From: an uncultured Myxococcales bacterium
GTDB lineage: Bacteria > Desulfobacterota > Binatia > UBA1149 > CAITLU01
Direction: 5' to 3'
Assembly: GCA_964476185.1 (NCBI GenBank)
Contig: CAYYZO010000006.1
Coordinates: 16,529 to 80,528 of the forward strand
DNA: 64,000 bases
Numbering within the stretch: the first letter of the stretch is position 1; the number at the start of each line of letters is the position of its first letter. A program made the translations under genes and the position numbers. Below are positions 12,199 through 29,504 of the stretch, one piece after another. Under the pieces are notes generated by a model, which saw nothing but the letters and a program-made list of their open reading frames with translations, was not told where the DNA came from and made no database searches.

Positions 12199-13815
12199 TC
12201 AGGGGCATCCGCCGACTCCCGGCGTGTACGTCGTCTGGGGATCGCTCGCGCAGTACAGCGTGACGGCGGATTGCAGCTGGAGCCGGCCCGGGCCGGGCAG
12301 GCCGACGACGGTGTTGACCGAGGCCGAAGAGGTCGGCGGCGAGCAGAACGTTCCGCCGACGTACGGCACGTAGGGGTTGGGCATGCCCTGGGTCACGATC
12401 GGATCCAGGAAACAATCGCGTCGCTCCACCAGCGTGCAGGTCCCCGCGTCGATCCCCAGCGTCGCCGGCTCGCAGTCGACGTTGCTCCCGCATCCGATCA
12501 GTCCGGTGCCTTCGGCGCGCAGTACCATGTCGCAGTACAGGTCGTCGGGACCGACGGCGCACAAGCCTTCCTCGCCGCCGACGTCGTCGCACTGGCCGGT
12601 GTCGCACGCGTTCGGCAGTGTCAGCGAGCCGCTGCCGTTGCTCGCACAGGCGCCGGCGGACAGGGCCTCGCACTCGGCGTGGCTGTTGCATGCGATCGTC
12701 GGATCGCCCGTGCAGAGCCGGCACGGGCACAACAGGTCACTGCCGGGGCCGTCGGTCGCGCACGGAACGTTCGCATGGAGTTCGTCCCGGCCGGTCGCCA
12801 GGCGCGTCTCGATGCGCAGGCCGGGGCCCGTGATGTTCGCACCGGCGAGCGGGTAGCAATCGAGGCTGTAGAGCGCGCCGGTCGGCGGCACGAACGTCGC
12901 GTTGTACGCCTGCGCGTCGCAGGTCTGTCCGGCGTTGGCGCCGCCGACGCAGGTCCCTCCGCGCTGCCCGTCGGCCGGCGTCGGGTCGTCAACGCAGAGT
13001 GGGCAGGGCTGCAGCAGGGAGATGCCGAGGTAGATCTTCTCTGCGAGATGAAGGTTGATGAACCCCGAACCCTCGTCGACGTTCACGTCGCCGTCGGGCT
13101 GGGAGGCCAGCGTGTTCAGCACGCAGACGGGCGTGTTGCCGGAAGACAGCGGCAGGGGCGGCCCGAAGTGGCAGATGCACTCGGCGCCGCCGCAGAACTG
13201 CTCGTCGGGCCCGGCGACCGTGAAGCACGGCTGGCGGTTGTCGTTCTCGCACCGGCAGTTCCCGAGCGAGGGGTCGTGGCCGGTCACCTCGCATTGTCCG
13301 CACGGAGCCGGCCCTTCGCAGCCGAGGAACACGCGCGCCGGAACCGGGTCGTCGGTGTCGTAGTCGTGCGAGAGGCCGGTCCATCCGACGTCGGCCTCGG
13401 TCCCGGTGCGGCAGCGTCCGAGGGTCGTGTCGCACACGGAAAAGGGCGCGCAGTCGGAGTTCGAGGCGCAGGCGCCACGGATCTTGGAGAACAATGCGAA
13501 CTGGGCGACGGACGGGCACCCGCTGTCGTCCGGCTCGCAGGCAGGGCAGTCGAGGGTGACGTCGAGGCCGACGGCGAGGCGGAGAACGGTCAGTGCGTCG
13601 GTGCTGGTCGTCTCGCCGGAATCGTTCACGTCGCAGACGCAGAGGTCGCACGACTCCAGATCGACGGACGTACGCAGCACGAAGAGTGCATCGGAGGCGT
13701 CGGCCGGATCGTGGAGCGGCATGCCGCAGTCGCCCACGTCGGCGCCGGCGCGGCCAGCGACGGCGAACAGCAGGAGCGAGGCGAGCAAGAGCTTCATCCG
13801 CTTCTCGAGACCCAT
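12199..13815 (-). CDS. secreted cysteine-rich protein with N-terminal two-repeat dockerin-like (EF-hand-like Ca-binding) segment; function unknown
   Basis: Signal peptide MGLEKRMKLLLASLLLFAVAGRAGA with a GGAGG RBS 7 nt upstream of ATG 13815. Dockerin-like repeats HDPADASDALFVLRTSVDLES and CDVNDSGETTSTDALTVLRLAVGLD span about 13561-13713. The remainder has about 50 Cys in a CxxC/CxC-rich module ending ...TLYCASDPQTTYTPGVGGCP. It is a paralog of 26883-29291. Confidence 0.7.
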   Translation of the reverse strand: MGLEKRMKLLLASLLLFAVAGRAGADVGDCGMPLHDPADASDALFVLRTSVDLESCDLCVCDVNDSGETTSTDALTVLRLAVGLDVTLDCPACEPDDSGCPSVAQFALFSKIRGACASNSDCAPFSVCDTTLGRCRTGTEADVGWTGLSHDYDTDDPVPARVFLGCEGPAPCGQCEVTGHDPSLGNCRCENDNRQPCFTVAGPDEQFCGGAECICHFGPPLPLSSGNTPVCVLNTLASQPDGDVNVDEGSGFINLHLAEKIYLGISLLQPCPLCVDDPTPADGQRGGTCVGGANAGQTCDAQAYNATFVPPTGALYSLDCYPLAGANITGPGLRIETRLATGRDELHANVPCATDGPGSDLLCPCRLCTGDPTIACNSHAECEALSAGACASNGSGSLTLPNACDTGQCDDVGGEEGLCAVGPDDLYCDMVLRAEGTGLIGCGSNVDCEPATLGIDAGTCTLVERRDCFLDPIVTQGMPNPYVPYVGGTFCSPPTSSASVNTVVGLPGPGRLQLQSAVTLYCASDPQTTYTPGVGGCP

Positions 13816-14083
13816 TCCGGCACCTCCGTGTGTGGTTGTTTGCCAGCAACAGTGTGACGTCCTCGATCGGGTATTGGCAACGGAGAACACGGAGAAAGCC
13901 GGTACGCAGTGTCCGGCAGTAAGTGGATAGTCTCACTTGGCGTCAGGTCGTACGGGGTCGACGGTGGCGGAAGGACGCTGGCTCGCCCGATCGAGCGTCG
14001 AGCGCGCAGGACGCGTGAGGGCGTGGCCTCTCGCGCTTGCGCGGCGTGGATCTACCCGCCGCGCTTCGATGCGCAGCGTCCGG

Positions 14084-15670
14084 TCAGAACCCGTGCGCCG
14101 CGAGCGCTGTCGAGATGCGATCGCGCACGGAAGGGTCGGGGAAGGGGAACGACGCGAGAAAGTCGACGAGACCCAACGTGGGAGCGCGCCGGCGCACTTC
14201 GGCGGCCCATGCGTCGGCGCGTCGGGAGTCGCCTCGCATTGAGTGCGCCGCGACCGCGATCATGGCGATCATCACGTGGGCACCAGGCGAGCGGGCGGCG
14301 AGCTCCGCCCAGGTGGCGCCGTCGTCATGCTGCGAGCGAACGATGTGGGAGAGCGCACGGGTCGCGGTCATCGCGTAGTGCAGGGGATCGAGCGGGCTCA
14401 GCGCCATGGCGGCGTCGGCGTCCCGCTGCCCCTCGCGGCCCCGGCCGGACAGCGTGTGCGTCCAGGCACGCGCGTAGACGCCCTGCGCGTAGTTCGGGCA
14501 CAGCGCGACCGAACGTTCGATCCAGATCAGCGCCGAGTCGAGGTCGCGCTCGAGCCAATGGGCCCGACCCATCGAGAAGTTCGCGAACGGGTCGAGGGAG
14601 TCGAGCTCCACCGCGCGCTCCGCCGCGCTGCGTGCGAGCGCGGCCGAAGCGGCGTCGTGCGGCACGAAGTGCAGGAACGCATTCTGGAAATGCACGAAGG
14701 AGCGACCCGCGTGGGCGCGGGCGAAGGAGGGGTCGAGGTCGATCGCCCGGTCGAAGCATTCTCCGGCAAACGCGTTGTCGCTGCGGTTGAAGCGGAACAT
14801 GTGGTGGCGGCCGAGGTGGTAAGCAGTCCACGCATCGAGATGCCCGGGGCTCGCTTTGGCTACGGTGGCCTCGTGCTCCGGGATACGCAGTTCCAGCGCG
14901 GAGACGACGCTGGATGCGATCCGTGCCGGCGTCTCCTGCACGTCGTCGAGCGAGATGCCGTACCGCTCGGCCCAGAGTACGTTGGCGTCGTGCGTTTGCG
15001 TGAGTCGTACCGAGACGACGAGTCGACGACCGCTCGTCTCGACGCTGCCGGTCACCACGTAGCGGACGCCGAGCAGGCGCCCGACATCCGCCGGATCGAC
15101 GGCGTCCGGCCGCAGCCGAAACGACGACCCGCGTGCGACGACGAACAGCCAGCGCAGTCGCGCGAGCTCGGTGATCAACTCGTCGGCCAGCGCCTCGGCC
15201 ACGGCGCCGTCCGGGGTCGGGTCGCCGACCCGCCCGAGCGCGAGCACCGCGATCGAAGGCCGTCCCGACTGCGCCGGCGCCTCGGCGTCTCGCGGTTCGT
15301 CGCCGCCTCGCGCGACCCGGGGCACCGCGCGTACGTCGGCCACGAAGCGGAACCCGCGCCCGTGCACGGTCCGGATCAGCCGCTGCGAGCGGCCGTCGTC
15401 GCCGATCGCGCGGCGGGCCGACTTGACGCGGCTGGAGATCGCGGCGTCCGAAACGACGCGGCCGTCCCAGACCTTCTCGACGATCTCGTCGCGCGAGACG
15501 AGTCGGTCGGCGTTCTCGACGAGCAGGAGAAGCAGCGCGAAGACCTGCGGCTCGACAGGGACGGGGCTGTCTTCCCGGCGCAGCTCGGCCCGCGCCGGGT
15601 CCAGCTCGAAGGTTTCGAAGCGGTGGATCACGGGCGGGACGATACCCGGAACCGCGCGGCCCGTCTCCAC
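14084..15670 (-). CDS. CadC/OmpR-type winged-helix transcriptional regulator with TolB-like and TPR C-terminal domains
   Basis: FELDPARAELRREDSPVPVEPQVFALLLLLVENADRLVSRDEIVEKVWDGRVVSDAAISSRVKSARRAIGD is a trans_reg_C DNA-binding domain. Downstream is a TolB-N-like region (IAVLALGRVGDPT...VRYVVTGSVE) and TPR-like helices. GTG start at 15670. Confidence 0.75.
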   Translation of the reverse strand: METGRAVPGIVPPVIHRFETFELDPARAELRREDSPVPVEPQVFALLLLLVENADRLVSRDEIVEKVWDGRVVSDAAISSRVKSARRAIGDDGRSQRLIRTVHGRGFRFVADVRAVPRVARGGDEPRDAEAPAQSGRPSIAVLALGRVGDPTPDGAVAEALADELITELARLRWLFVVARGSSFRLRPDAVDPADVGRLLGVRYVVTGSVETSGRRLVVSVRLTQTHDANVLWAERYGISLDDVQETPARIASSVVSALELRIPEHEATVAKASPGHLDAWTAYHLGRHHMFRFNRSDNAFAGECFDRAIDLDPSFARAHAGRSFVHFQNAFLHFVPHDAASAALARSAAERAVELDSLDPFANFSMGRAHWLERDLDSALIWIERSVALCPNYAQGVYARAWTHTLSGRGREGQRDADAAMALSPLDPLHYAMTATRALSHIVRSQHDDGATWAELAARSPGAHVMIAMIAVAAHSMRGDSRRADAWAAEVRRRAPTLGLVDFLASFPFPDPSVRDRISTALAAHGF

Positions 15671-16270: not shown

Positions 16271-17584
16271 TTAAGCGGAGGCCGCACCGGCCTGTTCCTG
16301 GTGGAACGGGCAGCCGCCGGAGGTCGTCGCCGATGCCTCGGAGCGCTTCGCCGGAGTGTACCGTACCGGCATCTCCTTGACGCCGTGGATGAAGTTGGAG
16401 CGGAGGAAGCGGATCGGGCCGGCCGCCTCGATGTCCGGGACCCGCGTCAGCAGTTCGGTGAAGATCGAGCGCAACTGGCAGCGCGCGAAGCTCGCGCCGA
16501 GGCAGTAGTGCTCGCCGATGCCGAGGCCAAGGTGCTCGGGGATGCGGCGCGTGACGTCGAAGCGGTCGGGGTCCTCGAACACATCCTCGTCGCGGTTGGC
16601 CGACGGATACCACATCACGACCTTGTCGCCTTTCTTCAGCGTCTTGCCGCGCAGCTCGAAGTCCTCGGTCAGGGTGCGCCGGAAGTGCATCACGGCCGGG
16701 TTGTAGCGAAGGAACTCCTCGACGGCGTTCGGGATCAGCGACGGGTTCTCGACCAGCTTCCTGCGCTCCTCGGGGTGCTCCATCAGGAGGCGCATGCCGT
16801 GCGCGGTCAGCGTGCGGGTGGTCTCGTTTCCCGCGATCATCAGCATCAGGAAGAAGTAATTGTACTGGAACGCGTCCATCGACTCGCCGTCGACCTTGCC
16901 GTGGTAGAGCGCGCTCGCGAGGTTGTCCTTCGGGCACTCGGCGACGAGGTCGCGCAGTTTCTGCCCGTACATGCAGACTTCGGCCGCCGCGATCCGTCCC
17001 TCGTCGAAGGAACCGATCAGTTCCGGATCGTCGAAGCCCACGAGCCGGTTGCTGAGGTCGAACAGCCGCGCCTGGTCTTCTTCCGGCACGCCGACGATCT
17101 CCATGATCGTCTTCATCGGCAGCTGGGCGGCCACGTCCATGACGAAGTCGCAGCTGCCCCGCTCGACGATGTCGTCGACGATCTCGCGCGCGAGGTCGCG
17201 GATGTGCGGCTCCAGGCGCTCGATCATCCGGGGAGTGAAGTTGTGGGCGACCAGGCGCCGGTACTTCACGTGCGTCGGCGGGTCCATGTTGAGCATCATG
17301 GACCGCGTTCCGTCGAGGTCCTCGCCGTGCAGGTCGAAGATGTTCGTGCCGCCCTCCCACGACGAGAACAGCATCGGGTTGCGCGACATCATCTTGATGT
17401 CCTCGTACTTCGTGATCGACCAGAAGCCGCGCCCGTTGCGCTCGACCTCGTGGCGCGTGTCGTTCCAGTGCACCGGATCCTCCCGGCGCAACCGGCGGAA
17501 GTAGTCGTGCGGGAATCCGTCGGCGAACGAGTCGGGGTTCGCCAGGTCGAGGTCGGGAAGGCTGGAAGCATCGGTTCGGGTCAT
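16271..17584 (-). CDS. cytochrome P450 (CYP125/CYP142/CYP124-like)
   Basis: Heme-binding loop LGLGIGEHYCLGASFAR, the EXXR block EEFLRYNPAV and the I-helix MLMIAGNETT. N-terminal MTRTDASSLPDLDLANPDSFADGFPHDYF. Confidence 0.9.
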   Translation of the reverse strand: MTRTDASSLPDLDLANPDSFADGFPHDYFRRLRREDPVHWNDTRHEVERNGRGFWSITKYEDIKMMSRNPMLFSSWEGGTNIFDLHGEDLDGTRSMMLNMDPPTHVKYRRLVAHNFTPRMIERLEPHIRDLAREIVDDIVERGSCDFVMDVAAQLPMKTIMEIVGVPEEDQARLFDLSNRLVGFDDPELIGSFDEGRIAAAEVCMYGQKLRDLVAECPKDNLASALYHGKVDGESMDAFQYNYFFLMLMIAGNETTRTLTAHGMRLLMEHPEERRKLVENPSLIPNAVEEFLRYNPAVMHFRRTLTEDFELRGKTLKKGDKVVMWYPSANRDEDVFEDPDRFDVTRRIPEHLGLGIGEHYCLGASFARCQLRSIFTELLTRVPDIEAAGPIRFLRSNFIHGVKEMPVRYTPAKRSEASATTSGGCPFHQEQAGAASA

Positions 17585-21097: not shown

Positions 21098-22642
21098 TCA
21101 CGGCGGGGTCTGGTTTCGCCAGGACCGCTGCAGGCCGAACAGCACCGTGAGCGCCGCGAGCAGCCCGGCGATGCTGGGCACGAGTCCGGGTGCCGTCGCC
21201 GCCAGAGTCATGCGCGAAGGCGGCGACGGGATCTCGAAGAGGCCGACGGCCTTGCGGCGCTGGATCGGGATGCCGATGTCGGCGCCGTCCGGGGCGATCG
21301 CGCCGGAGATACCGCCGTTGGCCGCGCGAACCATCGGGCGCCGCAGTTCGACCGTGCGCAAGGCGCTCATCGCGTAGTGCTGTTCGGGGCCCGCGCCGCC
21401 GGAGAACCAGGCGTCGTTCGAGAGGTTGACGAGCAGGTCCGCTCCGCCGAGCACGGCTTTTCGGGCGTACTCGGGATAGACCGCCTCGAAGCAGATGAGC
21501 GGGGAGACCTTCCAGCCCTTCACCTCGAACCACGCTGCCCGGTCGCCGGCGCGATAGTGCGCCGCGTCCACGATCTCCGAAGACCCGGCCGGTGAGCTCT
21601 CCACGTACGGAAGCAGGCGCTGCTTGTCGTACGTGCGAGGCTCGGACGCATCGGGCGGGAAGAACCATGCGCTGTTGTAGACGGCAGCACGGCCGTCGCC
21701 GGTCGATTCGCTCCGCGGCGCTCCGAGCAGGATCGCGGCGCGCAGCGACGAAGCCAGTCCGGACAGGCGCGAGCGGGCCGAGGAGTCGGAATCGAGCAGG
21801 AACGGAACCGAGCTCTCCGGCCACACGACGAGGTCGACCGTGCCCGGCTCGAGGTTCCGCGTCGCGTTCATGTAGGCGTTCCAGTGCTCGATGCGACGGG
21901 CGGGATCCCAGACCTCGCGGCTGGGGATCTCGGCCTGGACCACGGCGACGCGAAGCGGCTTGTGCGGCGAGATGCGCTGCTCGCGGGTCTGCTCGGCGAG
22001 GCCGAGTCCCGTCAGCACCAGCAGCGACAGGAGCGTCAGCTTCATGCAGTTCGACGCGCTTCGCGAGTCCGCGTCGGGCTGCACGCCGACCCCGATGGCG
22101 CTGCCGCAGACGGCGGCTGCCCATCCGAGGAAGGCCTCGCCGCCGAACGAGGCCGCTTCGCGCAGGACCGGCAGGCCGGCGAAGGCCTGGCCGAGCGTTG
22201 CCCACGTGTTGCCGAACGGATCCATTCCGCGGATCGCCTCGACCGTCGTCCAGACCGACGCGATCCCGAGGACGCGCAGGACCGGCGGCACGAACGCGAG
22301 AAGGCGGATGCCGATGAAGGCCGGCACATAGAACGTCGCGACGTACGCCGCGTTGACCACCAGCGTGAACCCGAGCGACCACAGGATGCCGCGATCGAAG
22401 TAGTCGGCCGCCGCGCTGAACATCCAAGGCCCGACGATCGCCAGCGAAGCGAGCCAGCCGAACGCGAAGCCCCAGAGTCCCGCGCGCGGGATCGAGCAGC
22501 GCATCGTCGGGTTCGCGAACACGAGCGTGATCGGCGTCAGGGCCAGGAACACGAGCGGCGCGACGTGGAACGGATGGTACAGCAGCGCGAACACGATCGT
22601 CGCTACGGCGACGCTGGCGGCCTGGACGATCAGCGGCGACAT
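21098..22642 (-). CDS. lnt: apolipoprotein N-acyltransferase
   Basis: A multi-TM N-terminus is followed by a CN-hydrolase domain (RVAVVQAEIPSREVWD...VDLVVWPESSVPF...LICFEAVYPEY). ATG 22642 (MSPLIVQAAS). It is convergent with the YnbE::YdbL gene with a 10-nt gap. Confidence 0.85.
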   Translation of the reverse strand: MSPLIVQAASVAVATIVFALLYHPFHVAPLVFLALTPITLVFANPTMRCSIPRAGLWGFAFGWLASLAIVGPWMFSAAADYFDRGILWSLGFTLVVNAAYVATFYVPAFIGIRLLAFVPPVLRVLGIASVWTTVEAIRGMDPFGNTWATLGQAFAGLPVLREAASFGGEAFLGWAAAVCGSAIGVGVQPDADSRSASNCMKLTLLSLLVLTGLGLAEQTREQRISPHKPLRVAVVQAEIPSREVWDPARRIEHWNAYMNATRNLEPGTVDLVVWPESSVPFLLDSDSSARSRLSGLASSLRAAILLGAPRSESTGDGRAAVYNSAWFFPPDASEPRTYDKQRLLPYVESSPAGSSEIVDAAHYRAGDRAAWFEVKGWKVSPLICFEAVYPEYARKAVLGGADLLVNLSNDAWFSGGAGPEQHYAMSALRTVELRRPMVRAANGGISGAIAPDGADIGIPIQRRKAVGLFEIPSPPSRMTLAATAPGLVPSIAGLLAALTVLFGLQRSWRNQTPP

Positions 22643-22737
22643 CGGGTCGGGCTCCCGGGGGCCGGGCAGGGGCCGCGCTGCGCCGCTTCCGCGCGTCCGT
22701 GTTGCGAACACGGGGAGAGTGCGGCATCGGGGTGGGC

Positions 22738-23325
22738 ATGGGCGAAGAACGGGGCCAGCGGTTCGCGGGCGTGCATGTCGCGCCCAGTGCTTCCATCTAC
22801 GGCGAGGTCGACATCGGGGCGGGCTCGTCGGTCTGGCCGAACGCCGTCGTGCGGGCCGAGTGCCAGCACGTCCGCGTCGGCCGGGTGACGAACCTGCAGG
22901 ACTTCGCGATGGTCCACGTCGGGTACGACCACCCGACCTTGATCGGCGACTTCTGTTCGATCACGCACCACGCGACCATCCACGGCGCGACGGTGGGCGA
23001 CGCCTGCCTCGTCGGCATCGGCGCCGTGCTGATGGACGGCGTCGTGCTGGGCGCCGGATCGATCGTGGCCGGCGGGGCCGTCCTGACCGAAGGGTCGGTG
23101 TTCGAGCCGGGCTCCATCGTGGCGGGAGTGCCGGCCCGGACGATCAAGCGGCGAGACGCGACGCGCGAGAATCGGTTGAACGCCTGGCTCTACCACCGCA
23201 ACGCGCTCGCGTACGCGCGCGGCGAGCATCGCGCCTGGCACGGCGAGGAGTTCGATCGCTGGAAGGCCGAACTGCTGCGCGAACTCGAGACCGACGCGGA
23301 TCTCGAGCGCCTGCGGCGAACGTGA
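22738..23325 (+). CDS. gamma-class carbonic anhydrase / hexapeptide-repeat (LbH) family protein (PaaY/YrdA-like)
   Basis: MGEERGQRFAGVHVAPSASIYGEVDIGAGSSVWPNAVVRAE...GRVTNLQDFAMVHVG...IGDFCSITHHATIHGATVGDACLVGIGAVLMDGVVLG are hexapeptide repeats. Confidence 0.8.
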   Translation: MGEERGQRFAGVHVAPSASIYGEVDIGAGSSVWPNAVVRAECQHVRVGRVTNLQDFAMVHVGYDHPTLIGDFCSITHHATIHGATVGDACLVGIGAVLMDGVVLGAGSIVAGGAVLTEGSVFEPGSIVAGVPARTIKRRDATRENRLNAWLYHRNALAYARGEHRAWHGEEFDRWKAELLRELETDADLERLRRT

Positions 23326-23378
23326 TTGCGCGGCCCGCGTTCGCGCGGCGCCGTCTTCCCCTGGATCCCGAACGAGGG

Positions 23379-23792
23379 TCACGCGAACACGACGATCGCC
23401 GAGCCCGGCGTCGTTTTCTTCCCCTCCGCGTTCTCGGTCCAGATGTCGAGCTCGACGACCTTTTCCCCCGCGTCGTTCGACTTCTTCTTCACGGTTCCCT
23501 TGCAGACGAATTCCTTGTTCGGCAGGTCCATGCCGCGGTACTGGCAGGAGATCTTGCGGATTCGGCCGGCATGCCCGAGCCAGTTCGACACGTACTCTCC
23601 GAGCGAGGCGTACTTGAACCGGCCGTGCACGATGATCGACCCGATCTGCTTGGCCTGCGGGAAGGCGTAGTCGTGGTGCAGCGGGTTGAAGTCGCCGCTC
23701 CCGGCCGAGTACTTGACGAGCGTCTGCAGCGTCGGCGTCTTGCGCATCTCGGGGAGCGCGTCCCCTTCGCGGATGTCTTCGAATCGAGCCAT
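23379..23792 (-). CDS. MaoC-like (R)-specific enoyl-CoA hydratase, hotdog fold (C-terminal-type subunit)
   Basis: MARFEDIREGDALPEMRKTPTLQTLVKYSAGSGDFNPLHHDYAFPQAKQIGSIIVHGRF has the NPLH motif. Confidence 0.8.
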   Translation of the reverse strand: MARFEDIREGDALPEMRKTPTLQTLVKYSAGSGDFNPLHHDYAFPQAKQIGSIIVHGRFKYASLGEYVSNWLGHAGRIRKISCQYRGMDLPNKEFVCKGTVKKKSNDAGEKVVELDIWTENAEGKKTTPGSAIVVFA

Positions 23793-23803
23793 GTCCCCGT
23801 GCC

Positions 23804-24291
23804 TCAGTAATAGATGACCTGGGAGGTCTGCCTGGCGGCGATCCTGCCCGTGGCCTTGTTGGTGTACGTGGTGACCATCGTGACGAGCAGCATCCTGCCG
23901 CCGAGGGCGGGGCTCGGCGCGACCTTGAGGTCGACGAGCTTCTGCACCGCGACGAGCGTGTCGCCGGCGCAGATGTCGTCGAAGGTCTCGGTCTCGGTGC
24001 CGCCGTCGAGCAGTCCCTTGAGGCCGTGGTTCACGTTCGGAATGCCTTCGGTCGGGCCGCTGAACGTGTCGCTGCAGCGTCCGGGCAGGAACACGGCCGT
24101 CCCGAGGTAGGTGGGCGGCGCGGGGAGACTCCGGTAGCCGGCCTGCCGGGCCGCCTCGACGTCGAAGTAGACGGGGTCGGTGTATCCGACCCCGCGCGCG
24201 AACATCCGCACGCTGGTGGTCGTGACCTCGAAGTCCCAGGGCGGCGATTCCTTGCCGATCTGGGCCTTCATGTCGTCGGTGAGATCGATGG
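23804..24291 (-). CDS. MaoC N-terminal-like hotdog protein (non-catalytic partner subunit of heterodimeric hydratase, ChsH1/ChsH2-N-like)
   Basis: [68 protein letters not shown] start at 24291 (alternative ATG 24261). It is adjacent to and co-oriented with the MaoC gene. Confidence 0.7.
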
Positions 24292-24690
24292 TTTCGGCCA
24301 CGGGGTGCTCCTCGGCGGGGCCGTCGCGCGTTCGGTCGGATGGGGGGCGGTCGAAAACGGACGGCGGGTTTCGGCAGTCGCGATTCAAGCAGCCCGCCTG
24401 GGGTAGAGCAACGCAGCGAAGGTGCCGAAAACGCTGGACGGGCGCGCGGGGTAGGGCCGACGGGGGCGGGCGTGGGGTCGACGCCCGACCGAGGGCGCGG
24501 TCGCCGGTTGGGCGTAGCGCGTCCGGCGCGGCGAGCGGAGTGCTCCTGGCCGGACCGGGGCGCCGCCGGATCGGTCGTGGCTCGCTTTCGGCGCGGCGTT
24601 CGGTTAACTGCAAGGTCGTGCACCGCGGCGGGCGGGCGCCAAATCCAGCAGTCCGGCCCGACCGGCCGGCCGATCGAACAGGAGAGCAGC

Positions 24691-25881
24691 ATGGGCAGGA
24701 AAGTATTCGTCGTCGGTGTCGGCATGACCAAGTTCGAGAAGCCCGGAGCGAAGGCCTGGGACTACCCGGACATGGCGAAGGAGGCCGGCACGCGCGCGCT
24801 CGAGGACGCCGGGGTGTCGTTCGACAAGATCGAGCAGATCGCGGTCGGTTACTGCTACGGCGACTCGACCGCCGGACAGCGCGCCGTCTACGAGCTCGGG
24901 ATCACCGGCGTGCCGATCTACAACGTGAACAACAACTGCTCGACCGGTTCGACGGCGCTCTTCATGGCCAAGCAGTTCATCGAGGGCGGCCTCGCCGACT
25001 GCACCCTCGCGCTCGGCTTCGAGAAGATGGAGAAAGGCTCCCTCGGGATGAAGTTCCAGGACCGCACGAACCCGATGGACAAGCACTTCGGCGAGATGGT
25101 CGCGCTGCGCGGCTTCGCGAGCGCCCCGGGCGCGCCGCAGTTCTTCGGCAACGCCGGCATCGAGCACATGGAGAAGTACGGGACGACGGCCGAGTCGTTC
25201 GCGCGCATCGGCCAGAAGAACCACAAGCACTCGGTCAACAACCCGTACTCGCAGTTCCGCGACGAGTACTCGCTCGAGGACATCCTGAACGCGCCGACCG
25301 TCTACGGGCCGCTGACGAAGCTGCAGTGCTGCCCGACCTCCGACGGCGCGGGCGCCGCGATCCTCGCCAGCGAGGACTTCGTGAAGAAGCACGGCCTCGA
25401 GAAGACCGCGGTCGAGATCGTCGGCATGGCGATGGCCACGGACTTCCCGTCCACGTTCGAGGAGCACTCGTGCATCAAGCTCGTCGGCGCGGACATGACG
25501 CGCAAGGCGGCCGAGAAGGTCTACGAGCAGTCCGGCCTCGGACCCGACGACGTGCAGGTCGTCGAACTGCACGACTGCTTCTCGTGCAACGAGCTGATCA
25601 CCTACGAGGGCCTGAAGCTGTGCCCGGAGGGCAAGGGCGGGGAGCTGATCGATTCCGGCGCCGTCACCTACGGCGGCAAGTGGGTCGTGAACCCGTCCGG
25701 CGGCCTGATCTCGAAGGGCCACCCGCTCGGCGCCACGGGCCTCGCGCAGTGCGCGGAGCTGAACTGGCAGCTGCGCGGCCAGGCCGACAAGCGCCAGGTC
25801 GAAGGCGCGCGGGTGGGGTTGCAGCACAACCTCGGTCTCGGCGGCGCGGCCGTCGTGACGATGTACCGTCGCGAGGCTTGA
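24691..25881 (+). CDS. SCP-x-type thiolase (Ltp3/Ltp4-like propanoyl-CoA C-acyltransferase family)
   Basis: [19 protein letters not shown]...[14 protein letters not shown]...[18 protein letters not shown]...[34 protein letters not shown] lies upstream of ATG 24691. Confidence 0.85.
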
Positions 25882-26100
25882 AGCGGCGCTGCTCGACGCC
25901 GGCGCCGGTCGTCCCTCGGGTCGGCCGGCTGCCGGCGGCGCCGCGACCTGGACAGGGCGGTTCGGGGCGTTCGGGCAACCGTTGCGACATTTCACCATCG
26001 ACTTCACGGCGGAGCCGCCGATCGCAAGGAGGCGCTCCTTCATTCGCCGGCACGGGCGCGCATCCGCGCCGGGCTACCGCGACGGGAGAACGAGGGACCC

Positions 26101-26787
26101 ATGGCCGATCTCGACCTGAGCCGCGACGGGGACGTGTTCGTCCTTCGCATGAAGAGCGGTGAGAACCGCTTCAACCCCGATTTCATCGCCGCGATGAACA
26201 CCGCGCTCGACGAGGTGGAGGCGGCGCGCGGCGCGGCCGCGCTCGTCACGACCGGCGACGGCAAGTTCTACTCGAACGGCCTCGACCTCGACTGGCTCTC
26301 CCAGCAGGAGCACGCGGTCGCGATGAAGTTCCTCGCGACCGTCCTGCAGTTGTTCGCGCGCGTCGTCGCGTTCCCGATGGCGACCGCCGCGGCGTGCAAC
26401 GGCCACGTCTTCGCCGGAGGAGCGATGCTCGCGCTCGCGCACGACTGGCGCGTCATGCGCCGCGACCGCGGCTTCTTCTGCCTGCCGGAACTGGACCTCG
26501 GCATGCCGCTGCCGATCGGCATGCGCACGCTGATCAAGGAACGCATGAGTCCGGCGGCCTTTCGCGACACCGTGCTGACGGCAGGACGCTTCGGGGCCGA
26601 CGACTGCGTGCGCCTCGGCTTCGTCGATCAGGCGGCCGACGAGGCCGACGTGCTTTCCGCCGCGATCGAGCGCGTGCGGCCGCATGCCGGCAAGAGCCGC
26701 GACGCGTACCGCGCGCTGAAGCGCGGCATGTATGCGGAGATGATCGAGGACCTCACGGGACCGCGCGCGGTCGCGATTCCGCAATAA
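26101..26787 (+). CDS. enoyl-CoA hydratase/isomerase family protein
   Basis: VFVLRMKSGENRFNPDFIAAMNTALDEVEAA...CNGHVFAGGAMLALAHDWRVM is a crotonase fold. The product is 228 aa. Confidence 0.8.
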   Translation: MADLDLSRDGDVFVLRMKSGENRFNPDFIAAMNTALDEVEAARGAAALVTTGDGKFYSNGLDLDWLSQQEHAVAMKFLATVLQLFARVVAFPMATAAACNGHVFAGGAMLALAHDWRVMRRDRGFFCLPELDLGMPLPIGMRTLIKERMSPAAFRDTVLTAGRFGADDCVRLGFVDQAADEADVLSAAIERVRPHAGKSRDAYRALKRGMYAEMIEDLTGPRAVAIPQ

Positions 26788-26882: not shown

Positions 26883-29291
26883 CTACGGGCAGCCGCCCAC
26901 GCCTGGCGTGTACGCCACCATCGGGTCCCCGGCGCATCGCAGGCTCAGCGTGGTCTGCTGGACCTGGCGGACCAGCCCCGGGAGGCCGGCCACCGCGTTG
27001 ATGCCCAGGTTCGAGGTAGGCGGAACGCAATGGCTGCCGGCGAGTAGCGGCGCGGTGGCGCTGGACGCTCCCGTAGCGACGACAGGGTCGAGGAAGCACG
27101 CGCGTCGCTCGACGATGGTGCAGTCGCCGGCATCGATGCCGACCGTGGCGGGGGTGCAGTCGTCGTTCGTCGAGCACGCGAGAATCCCGCGGCCGTCAGC
27201 TCTTGTGACGCCGTCGCAGAAACGGTCGTCGGGCCCGGTCGTGCACTGGCCCTCGCCGCCGCCGAGATCCGTACAGAGAAGGTCCTCGCAGTCGTTGGGA
27301 AGCGGATCGACGCCGAAGCCTCTGCTGCTGCAGGTGGCGGGCTCGCAGGAACCGAGATTCGCGTCCTGGCAGTCCGCGTCCACGCTGCACGGCAGGGACA
27401 GCAAGCCCGTGCAGCGATGCAAGGCCGGGTGGCAGGTGCCGACGTCGACGGTAGCGCAGTCGGCGTTCTCGTCGCATTGATGGAGGGGGGCCGCGGCGCA
27501 GCCGCCTCGCAGCGCGGCGCAGTCGGTGTCACCGGCGCAAGCGACCGAGGGGTCGGAACTGCAGAGCAGGCACGGACAGTCCAGGCCGGCTCCGGTTCCG
27601 GGACAGGACAGGCCGGAGGCGTGCGAACTCGCCCCCGTCTTCTGCGACAGGTTCAGCTTCAGCCCGGATCCGCTGACGTTGAGGCCGGCGGACGGCAGGC
27701 AGTCGAGGCTGTACCCGCTTCCGCCTCCACCTCCGGCAAAGGCGGGCAGCGAGGCATTCGCGCCCAGGACATCGCAGGACAGGCCGTTGGACTGGCCGCC
27801 CACGCATGTCCCGCCGCGAAGTCCGTCGCCCGCGACCGGGTCGAGGTCGCAGGAGCCGCCGGGGCAGTCGAAGTCGCGCTGGCACGTGGCGGCGGGATTG
27901 TTCGAGCAGGTTCCGCCGCAGGTCGGACAGGGCGCTACCGTGGTCGAGCCGAGGTAGATCCTCGAACTCAGGCTTGCCTCGAGCACGACGTCTCCGGTGT
28001 CCACGTCGATCGAACCGTCGGGGTGCTCCGTGATCCGGTCGACGACGCAAAGGGGAGTGCCTCCGAAGCTGAGCGGCGCCGGCGGGCCGGCGTAACACTG
28101 GCAGGCGCCGCTGCCCGGGCAGTCGTCCGAGTGCGGAGCGAACGGGTCGTCGCAGACGATCCGCGGATCGTCGATGCAGCGGCAGTTGCCGGGGGCCGGG
28201 TCGAGCGCGACGATGTCGCACGAACCGCACGTCGGCCCGGCCGGTCCTTCGCAATACAGCCTCAACCCGAGGCGAACGCCGTCGTTGGAGTCGGATTCGT
28301 GGCCGAGTCCGGTCCAGCCGAGGTCCACGTCGGTGACAGAGGTGCAGTGGCCCAGCGTCTGGTCGCAGGTGCGTGGGGCGGCGCAGTCGCCGTTGTCCGA
28401 GCACGGCACCTTCGTGTCGCGGGAGAGCAGGACCAACTCTGCGCTCCCGGGGCAAGCCGGATCGCCGACCGGGATCGTGGTCGGCGTCGGCAGCTGGAGC
28501 AGCTCTTCGACGAAGACCTTGCCGCCGTCGTCCAGTGTCGACACTACGCAACTCGCCAGCAGGGAAGGATCGGTCGCTCCGCCGCAAGAGTCGAGGTCAC
28601 CGTCGGGCAGGACCTCCGCGCACGGACCGTTCAGGATGCTCTCTTCGACCTTGGCGCTCGCCTCGCTGAGAAGAGCCGGATACTCGGCGTCCGTGCATTC
28701 CGTCACGGTCACGGCGCCGGCCTTCTCGGCGTCGGACTGGCACTTCGAGACGCTCCTGAGGATCGCGTCGAAGAAGCGCGAGCTGCTCTTGGTGACCGAG
28801 CGGTGGCACTTTCTCGAAGGGGTCGCGAGTGGCACGGCGGGATCTCCGTACGCGGCGTCCGCCAGTTCCTCGATGCGCGACCGGTTCAGGCATACGAGGC
28901 ATTCTGCCACCTCGTCGAATCCGGTCAGCGCGGGGACGGTTACGTCGCATGGCGCCGGACACTGCTGGAACAGGACCGTCGATGGGAGGATCCCCTCGCA
29001 TCGGGCCGTGACGTTCTGCACGAACTTCGCTTCGGCCTGCGGGAGCTTGTCCTTCAAGTCGGCGGTCGCGGGGGAGTTGCAGTCGAGCGCGCCGGCGCCG
29101 GTGTTGCGGTAGTGGTGGCAGTCGGCGATGGCGCGCATCGTCGCCTTGGCGAGTTTCGCTCCAGCCTTGGCCACGGTCGACCGGCAACGAAGCTGCTCGG
29201 GACTGAACTGGCCGAAGGCGGTTCCGGGGGATCCGGGCAGGATCGTCGTGAGGACGATCATGGTAGTGAACAACAAGGCGGAACGACGCAT
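26883..29291 (-). CDS. secreted cysteine-rich protein, paralog of 12199-13815 with different N-terminal module; function unknown
   Basis: Signal peptide MRRSALLFTTMIVLTTILPGSPGTAFG, with an AGGAG RBS before ATG 29291. About 70 Cys. The C-terminal 350 aa align with the 12199-13815 protein (DLGWTGLGHESDSNDG... / DVGWTGLSHDYDTDDP...; ...CTIVERRACFLDPVVATG... / ...CTLVERRDCFLDPIVTQG...) and both end in YTPGVGGCP. Confidence 0.75.
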   Translation of the reverse strand: MRRSALLFTTMIVLTTILPGSPGTAFGQFSPEQLRCRSTVAKAGAKLAKATMRAIADCHHYRNTGAGALDCNSPATADLKDKLPQAEAKFVQNVTARCEGILPSTVLFQQCPAPCDVTVPALTGFDEVAECLVCLNRSRIEELADAAYGDPAVPLATPSRKCHRSVTKSSSRFFDAILRSVSKCQSDAEKAGAVTVTECTDAEYPALLSEASAKVEESILNGPCAEVLPDGDLDSCGGATDPSLLASCVVSTLDDGGKVFVEELLQLPTPTTIPVGDPACPGSAELVLLSRDTKVPCSDNGDCAAPRTCDQTLGHCTSVTDVDLGWTGLGHESDSNDGVRLGLRLYCEGPAGPTCGSCDIVALDPAPGNCRCIDDPRIVCDDPFAPHSDDCPGSGACQCYAGPPAPLSFGGTPLCVVDRITEHPDGSIDVDTGDVVLEASLSSRIYLGSTTVAPCPTCGGTCSNNPAATCQRDFDCPGGSCDLDPVAGDGLRGGTCVGGQSNGLSCDVLGANASLPAFAGGGGGSGYSLDCLPSAGLNVSGSGLKLNLSQKTGASSHASGLSCPGTGAGLDCPCLLCSSDPSVACAGDTDCAALRGGCAAAPLHQCDENADCATVDVGTCHPALHRCTGLLSLPCSVDADCQDANLGSCEPATCSSRGFGVDPLPNDCEDLLCTDLGGGEGQCTTGPDDRFCDGVTRADGRGILACSTNDDCTPATVGIDAGDCTIVERRACFLDPVVATGASSATAPLLAGSHCVPPTSNLGINAVAGLPGLVRQVQQTTLSLRCAGDPMVAYTPGVGGCP

Positions 29292-29504
29292 GGGCTGCTC
29301 CTTTTCACGGCGGTTTCAGGGCGGTTGCCGGACGAACCGACCACGCGAGCCCCCGTTGCCTCGCGAGAGTGCTCCCCCTGTAGCGCTGCGGTCGTCGCAA
29401 TGACAAGGCATTTCCCGCACTTCCGTGAAAATATTCACTCGATGCAGGAATGAACGTTCCGTCGTCGTTCGCGATTCGTCCCGCGTTGGCAGCGGCCTGC
29501 GCGG

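Follow-up and report, generated by a model that had tools for sequence, protein, structure and literature searches.

Two open reading frames (ORFs) in a stretch of 64,000 nucleotides (nt) from an uncultured Myxococcales bacterium of the GTDB class Binatia (contig CAYYZO010000006.1, assembly GCA_964476185.1; hereafter the window) encode proteins, ORF A and ORF B, which according to their alignment are true, diverged paralogs. They represent a family that is uncatalogued, without an entry in Pfam or NCBIfam and without a solved structural relative. Both proteins are rich in cysteine (Cys), start with what read as Sec-type signal peptides and share a large C-terminal module, which is joined to interchangeable N-terminal units in the relatives. 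We consider the chances about even that these modular proteins are exported, stabilised by disulfides and probably also by Ca2+, and serve as a binding or adhesion scaffold in the envelope or matrix. The Binatia/Binatota and related ‘delta’-type lineages are abundant in soils and sediments and uncultured, and to our knowledge almost nothing has been reported on their cell surface or secreted proteins.

Paralogy of the two proteins and layout of their genes

BLASTP with compositional adjustment aligned A and B with 332 bits (E = 5e-109, 39% identity). The alignment is collinear and pairs residues 277-802 of A with residues 97-538 of B; the shared module therefore comprises about 442 amino acids (aa) in B and 526 aa in A. 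The original prediction had put the module at about 350 aa, which is too short for a domain of about 440-525 aa, and the peptide pairs it had quoted as collinear homology all fall within the alignment, as does the identical C-terminus YTPGVGGCP. It had named a purely compositional similarity without a conserved Cys register as its refutation, and two checks spoke against such a similarity. In a 22-sequence alignment, all 38 module Cys of B stand opposite a Cys of A, and each of the 12 additional Cys of A is opposite a gap. Shuffled versions of the B module scored at most 26.6 bits against A in 200 shuffles, compared to the 332 bits observed. None of the Cys columns varies in the 22-, 15- and 77-sequence alignments. 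Collinear homology, the Cys register and the end Y-x-P-G-x-G-G-C-P, by which a common family was recognised, are thus shared by both proteins. Exactly two copies were found in the window using tblastn, the number expected beforehand. At 39% amino acid identity, the synonymous sites between A and B are saturated.

The extra Cys-rich insert noticed earlier in A (CDENADC...) was located at residues 594-655, and a further one was found at residues 460-482. Most relatives carry the segment corresponding to A594-655, and B therefore looks like a shortened form. Other members contain extra inserts with 12 Cys (P0003, P0008, P0011, P0016 and P0023; relatives are given P numbers, genome loci L numbers) or with 4 Cys (P0021). 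The number of Cys is even in every insert between members (4, 8, 12 and 4), which fits self-contained disulfide cassettes, and the Cys totals of both proteins, 64 and 44, are even as well. A small knot motif that is repeated in the Cys-rich loops of the module, C-x2-[ND]-x-[DE]-C, occurs six times in A, and three occurrences of the relaxed form C-x2-[NDSH]-x-[DE]-C were counted in B.

Both ORFs were found on the minus strand where they had been predicted, each with the strong ribosome-binding site (RBS) that had been claimed for it (Table 1). A protein identical to A is present in the NCBI-derived collection (P0001), and the ATG of B at position 13815 is also the start in the public annotation. 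The PAxA/xF pattern at the signal peptide is kept across the family alignment, and residues 1-27 are the sole segment of the final structure model of A with a predicted local distance difference test (pLDDT) value below 50, a disorder that fits a signal peptide. Where A has its short Thr/Pro linker, relatives have a long poly-Thr tract. The helical, Cys-containing N-terminus foreseen for A was recovered in the model, with helices spanning residues 31-265 (pLDDT about 90) and 14 Cys.

Table 1. Features of ORF A, ORF B and the DNA upstream of A, in window coordinates (ORFs include the stop codon; AF2, AlphaFold 2; a slash marks the end of a signal peptide).
Feature	Position	Strand	Basis
ORF A, predicted secreted Cys-rich protein, 802 aa, 64 Cys	26883..29291	minus	
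A signal peptide, residues 1-27: MRRS, hydrophobic core, AFG/Q	29211..29291	minus	read from sequence
A N-terminal helical domain, residues 28-268, 14 conserved Cys	28488..29210	minus	AF2 model
A Thr/Pro linker, residues 269-279, PTPTTIPVGDP	28455..28487	minus	family alignment
A C-terminal module, residues 280-802, 50 Cys, ends YTPGVGGCP; predicted barrel core plus disulfide-rich loop excursions	26886..28454	minus	
Insert 1 of A relative to B, residues 460-482 (GTCSNNPAATCQRDFDCPGGSCD), 4 Cys	27846..27914	minus	
Insert 2 of A relative to B, residues 594-655, 8 Cys, includes the CDENADC and CSVDADC knots	27327..27512	minus	
Shine-Dalgarno AAGGAG, 6 nt before the ATG of A	29298..29303	minus	
ORF B, predicted secreted paralog, 538 aa, 44 Cys	12199..13815	minus	
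B signal peptide, residues 1-25, ending GRAGA/D	13741..13815	minus	read from sequence
B N-terminal dockerin-like / EF-hand-like segment, residues 26-96, motif DVNDSGETTSTDALTVLRLAVG	13528..13740	minus	
B C-terminal module, residues 97-538, 38 Cys, ends YTPGVGGCP	12202..13527	minus	
Shine-Dalgarno GGAGG, 7 nt before the ATG of B	13823..13827	minus	
CCGTGAAAA, proximal copy	29302-29310	minus	
CCGTGAAAA, distal copy	29423-29431	plus	
Imperfect palindrome GTGAA-N4-TTCAC (GTGAAAATATTCAC), about 135 nt upstream of A, overlapping the distal CCGTGAAAA	29425..29438		

Predicted fold of the module and extent of the family

A was modelled by AlphaFold from 15 sequences with a poor result (pLDDT 57). The alignment was enlarged to 77 sequences via a search of representatives, and the second full-length model (AF2) reached a pLDDT of 91 and a predicted template modelling score (pTM) of 0.75. 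It consists of the helical N-domain and the beta-rich residues 280-802. The long strands of the module lie at residues 281-288, 339-346, 357-363, 412-420, 435-447, 544-551, 749-756 and 772-786, and Cys-rich excursions of about 10 to 185 aa are found between them. Residues L345, L544, L557, I737 and F733 of the long strands show 83-91% identity. Conserved aliphatic strand positions alternate with variable, often charged ones, a pattern interpreted as a barrel whose hydrophobic core is buried and whose outside faces the solvent. The model thus suggests that the C-terminal module is a soluble beta-barrel with a conserved aliphatic core. An acidic loop of the pattern H-[DE]-x-D-x-[ND]-D is conserved as well (HESDSNDG in A, HDYDTDDP in B); it resembles DxDxDG-type Ca2+ loops, and by this likeness the module probably has a Ca2+-type acidic loop. 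A Foldseek search of the model against the PDB returned nothing at E ≤ 1e-3, and a PDB sequence search using the 77-sequence profile returned nothing meaningful. For the N-domain of A, only generic helical-bundle matches were obtained.

The searches of the domain collections were likewise negative. For A and B, the N-domain of A included, no Pfam match was found at E ≤ 1; at the same threshold NCBIfam gave nothing relevant (one sub-threshold P2X match on A), and the PADLOC and PHROGs models for anti-phage defence and phage families matched neither protein. A word-indexed homology search returned 29 relatives only, and an exhaustive profile search with the module was then used. This search identified 1,053 representatives (50% clustering, E ≤ 1e-3), 656 of them at E ≤ 1e-10 and 324 at E ≤ 1e-30. 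Wherever a representative has a source name, it is one of three: ‘hypothetical protein’, ‘DUF4215 domain-containing protein’ or ‘cysteine-rich repeat protein’.

In nearly all members the module is at the C-terminus, in most cases with Y-x-P-G-x-G-G-C-P as its end; some relatives contain a tandem pair of modules. A distant branch (P0124, P0127, P0136-P0142, P0149, P0151, P0154, P0157 and P0158) has no such tail and finishes directly behind the last strand, its final residue being Tyr or Phe (e.g., ...LQIQRNY, ...TEKLF); this terminal residue is reminiscent of an outer-membrane beta-signal. P0022 continues beyond the GGCP end for about 110 aa (residues ~744-853, alignment columns 1027-1136), and this extension, for which Pfam gave no match at E ≤ 1, contains CGSSGCH, a CxxCH haem-binding-type motif.

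The N-terminal partners of the module vary. Using a local hidden Markov model search, the helical N-domain of the A type was detected in 76 of the 176 relatives in hand. A word-indexed search with this domain of A alone (28464-29210, 249 aa) gave no matches and missed even the parent P0001, which looks like a gap in tool sensitivity, not biology. Among 48 diverse relatives, DUF4215/myxo_disulf_rpt repeats are present in 22-27 and DUF7450 in four. The N-terminus of B, which recurs in P0023 and in relatives with GDCxQP..., had been described as a dockerin. This holds at the level of the dockerin-like motif DVNDSGETTSTDALTVLRLAVG and not for the Pfam domain: at E ≤ 1, PF00404 was detected neither in B nor in nine relatives with the same N-terminus (P0030, P0044, P0046, P0050, P0063, P0065, P0079, P0088 and P0023). 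One relative, P0070, carries a Pfam dockerin (PF00404).

To map the family in genomes, the GTDB species representatives were scanned with a 6-sequence seed alignment, which gave 85 loci, of which 80 were kept. All 85 are on contigs of uncultured metagenome-assembled genomes (MAGs) or metagenome bins, labelled nearly always as Candidatus Binatia/Binatota, Deltaproteobacteria, Myxococcales/Polyangiaceae or Thermodesulfobacteriota. One family member with 33% identity (L022, 6001-7344, CAXQPB010000119.1) lies on a contig of 70 kb that was assigned to the archaeon Nitrosopumilus sp. in binning; most likely, this is a mis-binned bacterial contig rather than an archaeal copy. Often, three to five or more loci are found in one genome. 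Many loci (L032, L033, L038, L066 and about 30 others) have two to four family-cluster ORFs in a span of 13 kb, a count which may include proteins sharing only an N-terminal domain; this points to local tandem duplication. An expanding, lineage-specific extracellular family had been proposed from the two copies in the window, and the putative signal peptides, the 1,053 representatives, the Binatia-type MAGs and the multiple loci with tandem arrays all agree with it.

Genomic context, divergence and upstream DNA

A is located between a same-strand SGL-type lactonase gene and a convergent enoyl-CoA hydratase gene and adjoins thiolase and dehydratase genes, the surroundings being housekeeping and lipid-metabolism genes. 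Lipid-related genes occupy 21098-26787 and 16271-17584 (apolipoprotein N-acyltransferase, Lnt; a FAS1-type dehydratase region, thiolase, enoyl-CoA hydratase and cytochrome P450). B is located between a winged-helix/TPR regulator gene and a histidine-phosphatase gene. The former (14084-15670, minus strand, 528 aa) lies directly upstream of B on the same strand and combines an OmpR-type winged-helix Trans_reg_C domain with TPR repeats.

From Lnt to enoyl-CoA hydratase, the genes are in synteny with those of a JGI (Joint Genome Institute) metagenome contig, L001, in which the neighbourhood of A is kept; the homologs in L003 and L084 lie in unrelated contexts. A conserved neighbour was sought across 83 loci, and none occurs at more than 11 of them, so the genes appear to stand alone. 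The most recurrent neighbour, found at these 11 loci, is a protein of about 340-400 aa without annotation (L052, 4519-5844); since even this one is restricted to 11 of the 83 loci and has no Pfam match, no operon partner was assigned. A Thr/Ser-rich putative lipoprotein (L022, 8748-10406), also without annotation or a Pfam match, recurs at seven loci.

A shares 49% identity with its syntenic ortholog in L001, compared to 61-93% for six flanking genes. The scaffold residues Cys, Gly and Pro are fixed and the remainder of the protein evolves quickly.

Upstream of A, inverted CCGTGAAAA elements and a palindrome had been reported. Both copies exist, as does the palindrome at 29425-29438; the coordinates given for the first element were off by 1-3 nt. 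The window holds no other such matches. In window shuffles, at least one GTGAA-N4-TTCAC site occurred in 2 of 100, and at least two CCGTGAAAA sites likewise in 2 of 100. The stretch CCGT.GAAAAGGAGCAGC.CATG, which holds the RBS-side CCGTGAAAA, is conserved at the syntenic ortholog of L001, unlike the distal copy and the palindrome. A regulatory RNA formed by the inverted CCGTGAAAA pair was rejected: the two copies do not pair with each other in the minimum-free-energy fold, the 5’ region of A folds no better than shuffled sequence (z = -0.34), the Rfam search of this region gave nothing and L001 lacks the distal copy. The palindrome is at most a possible protein operator.

Proposed role and relation to known systems

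According to the proposed mechanism, A and B would leave the cytoplasm via Sec and become heavily disulfide-bonded. The barrel would provide a rigid, protease-resistant frame, whose connecting loops may have grown into stacks of small disulfide-knotted hairpins. These excursions would take up or lose whole cassettes with an even number of Cys, and the outer surface would thereby be variable and fast-evolving. Interchangeable N-terminal units on a Thr-rich spacer (the disulfide-braced helical domain in A, the dockerin-like segment in B, DUF4215/myxo_disulf repeats elsewhere in the family) would anchor the module at, or direct it to, its presumed site of action, the extracellular matrix or cell surface, where the proteins would act as a binding or adhesion scaffold. 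The family would diversify by duplication and fast surface evolution. In this scheme, we infer that the proteins are exported beyond the periplasm, form disulfides, bind Ca2+ and act in binding or adhesion.

A toxin, an adhesin or a binding scaffold had been suggested in the original prediction, and the evidence mildly favours a binding or adhesion scaffold. An analogy lends this weak support: DUF4215 repeats were found in a diatom adhesive-trail protein (bioRxiv 10.1101/2023.03.06.531300). Several points weigh against such a scaffold. The family is, as far as the searches go, known from sequences of uncultured MAGs alone, and no ligand, partner or cohesin-like protein was identified. The strand count, the buried face, the Cys-Cys pairings and the Ca2+ site of the model are read only from secondary structure and conservation. 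The quick divergence could be relaxed constraint rather than diversifying selection, and the nearly invariant residues H331, D334, S528 and D530 could equally mark a catalytic site.

Other roles were weighed using the same data. An unlikely one, which we nevertheless rank first among them, is that of a hydrophobic-ligand carrier: like YceI, DynF or lipocalins, the barrel would take up a lipid, isoprenoid or alkane in its interior and thereby help to capture substrates in a lineage with abundant lipid and hydrocarbon metabolism. A secreted enzyme, e.g., a hydrolase or lyase acting on an extracellular polymer, seems less probable again. Its active site would be formed by H331, D334, S528 and D530, and the N-terminal units would be used for targeting. 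These four residues as well as D489, D507, R371 and R775 either do not vary or are conserved to at least 90%. Secreted glycoside hydrolases have a similar layout, in which a targeting domain that varies is joined via a Thr-rich linker to a large conserved domain, and the dockerin in P0070 and the dockerin-like segment in B speak for it, too. However, no enzyme family was matched by sequence or by fold, and the conserved residues other than Cys are mostly Gly, Pro, Asp and Asn, as is typical of turns and Ca2+ loops.

We rate a secreted toxin or antagonistic effector as more doubtful still. The activity would then reside in the stable, disulfide-knotted module, and an arms race would lie behind the duplication and fast evolution. 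Secreted toxins are commonly stabilised by Cys knots, the family is multi-copy with tandem arrays and A diverges faster than its neighbours. On the other hand, no immunity-like small gene is consistently adjacent, no neighbour is found at more than 11 of the 83 loci, and PADLOC and PHROGs gave no matches. Furthermore, polymorphic toxins vary at the C-terminus and keep the N-terminus, whereas the A/B family shows the reverse.

An integral outer-membrane protein, in which the module would be an 8-stranded transmembrane barrel like OmpW or NspA, with giant disulfide-rich loops on the extracellular side and the N-domain in the periplasm, is very improbable, above all because of the Cys load (38-50 in the module, which is very high), the missing aromatic beta-signal (A and B end in GGCP, 16 residues past the last strand) and the soluble-core conservation of the strands, whose hydrophobic positions are conserved aliphatics with few aromatic ‘girdle’ residues and whose polar positions are variable; in addition, conserved Cys within strands and about 32 presumed disulfides fit poorly with passage of an unfolded chain to the beta-barrel assembly machinery (BAM), the alternating runs are short (about 7-9 residues), very long excursions (96 and about 185 aa) seem to protrude from both ends of the barrel, and N-terminal partners such as dockerin and DUF4215 are typically extracellular.

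Large, multi-copy and fast-evolving, and with a confident model available, the family is a concrete candidate for inclusion in the domain databases as well as for structural and biochemical study. It would bear on how these organisms acquire substrates or attach, should the barrel bind hydrophobic substrates or the proteins form a matrix. Even as no more than a structural scaffold, the family would be a useful lineage marker and a natural case of extreme disulfide stabilisation in bacteria.

Within the PDB, solved analogues exist for the barrel core only. The core is most similar to the eight-stranded antiparallel barrels of NspA (1p4t) and OmpW (2f1t) and more weakly to the soluble YceI (1y0g, 1wub) and DynF (6ubl). 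Identity is only 4-9%, the similarity extends over roughly one quarter of the module, and its Cys-rich excursions, about 350 aa, have no counterpart in these barrels. Further differences are the about 25 presumed disulfides of the module, its lack of a C-terminal beta-signal and a conservation pattern that fits a soluble core. Tentatively, and with little confidence, we suggest that the module may be a new architecture, namely a soluble barrel of OmpW/NspA shape whose loops have grown into nested knots with about 25 disulfides. It might then be a signature extracellular domain of Binatia-like organisms with a lineage-specific job, e.g., the capture of hydrophobic substrates or the building of a matrix via interchangeable N-terminal tethers.

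Cellulosome-type dockerin proteins (PF00404) are modular and have a Thr-rich linker like the A/B family, and the DVNDSGETTSTDALTVLRLAVG segment of B resembles the Ca2+-binding repeat of dockerins, at motif level only; they differ from the A/B family, for which no cohesin partner was found and in which the attached module is not a known enzyme. Proteins with DUF4215/TIGR02232 repeats are, like the A/B family, secreted, acidic and disulfide-rich and occur in the same kinds of organisms. We know of no function assigned to DUF4215. In relatives of A and B, these repeats are fused N-terminally to the module, and the databases name the fusions after the repeats. A and B themselves match neither DUF4215 nor TIGR02232, the repeats occurring only as N-terminal partners in other relatives. 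Moreover, DUF4215/TIGR02232 proteins are strings of 40-aa repeats, whereas the module forms one large domain (about 440-525 aa), predicted to be built on a barrel. Secreted disulfide-rich modular proteins of myxobacteria-like lineages are a familiar kind, and the A/B family does not yet show a new mechanism; the module itself is an uncatalogued domain family.

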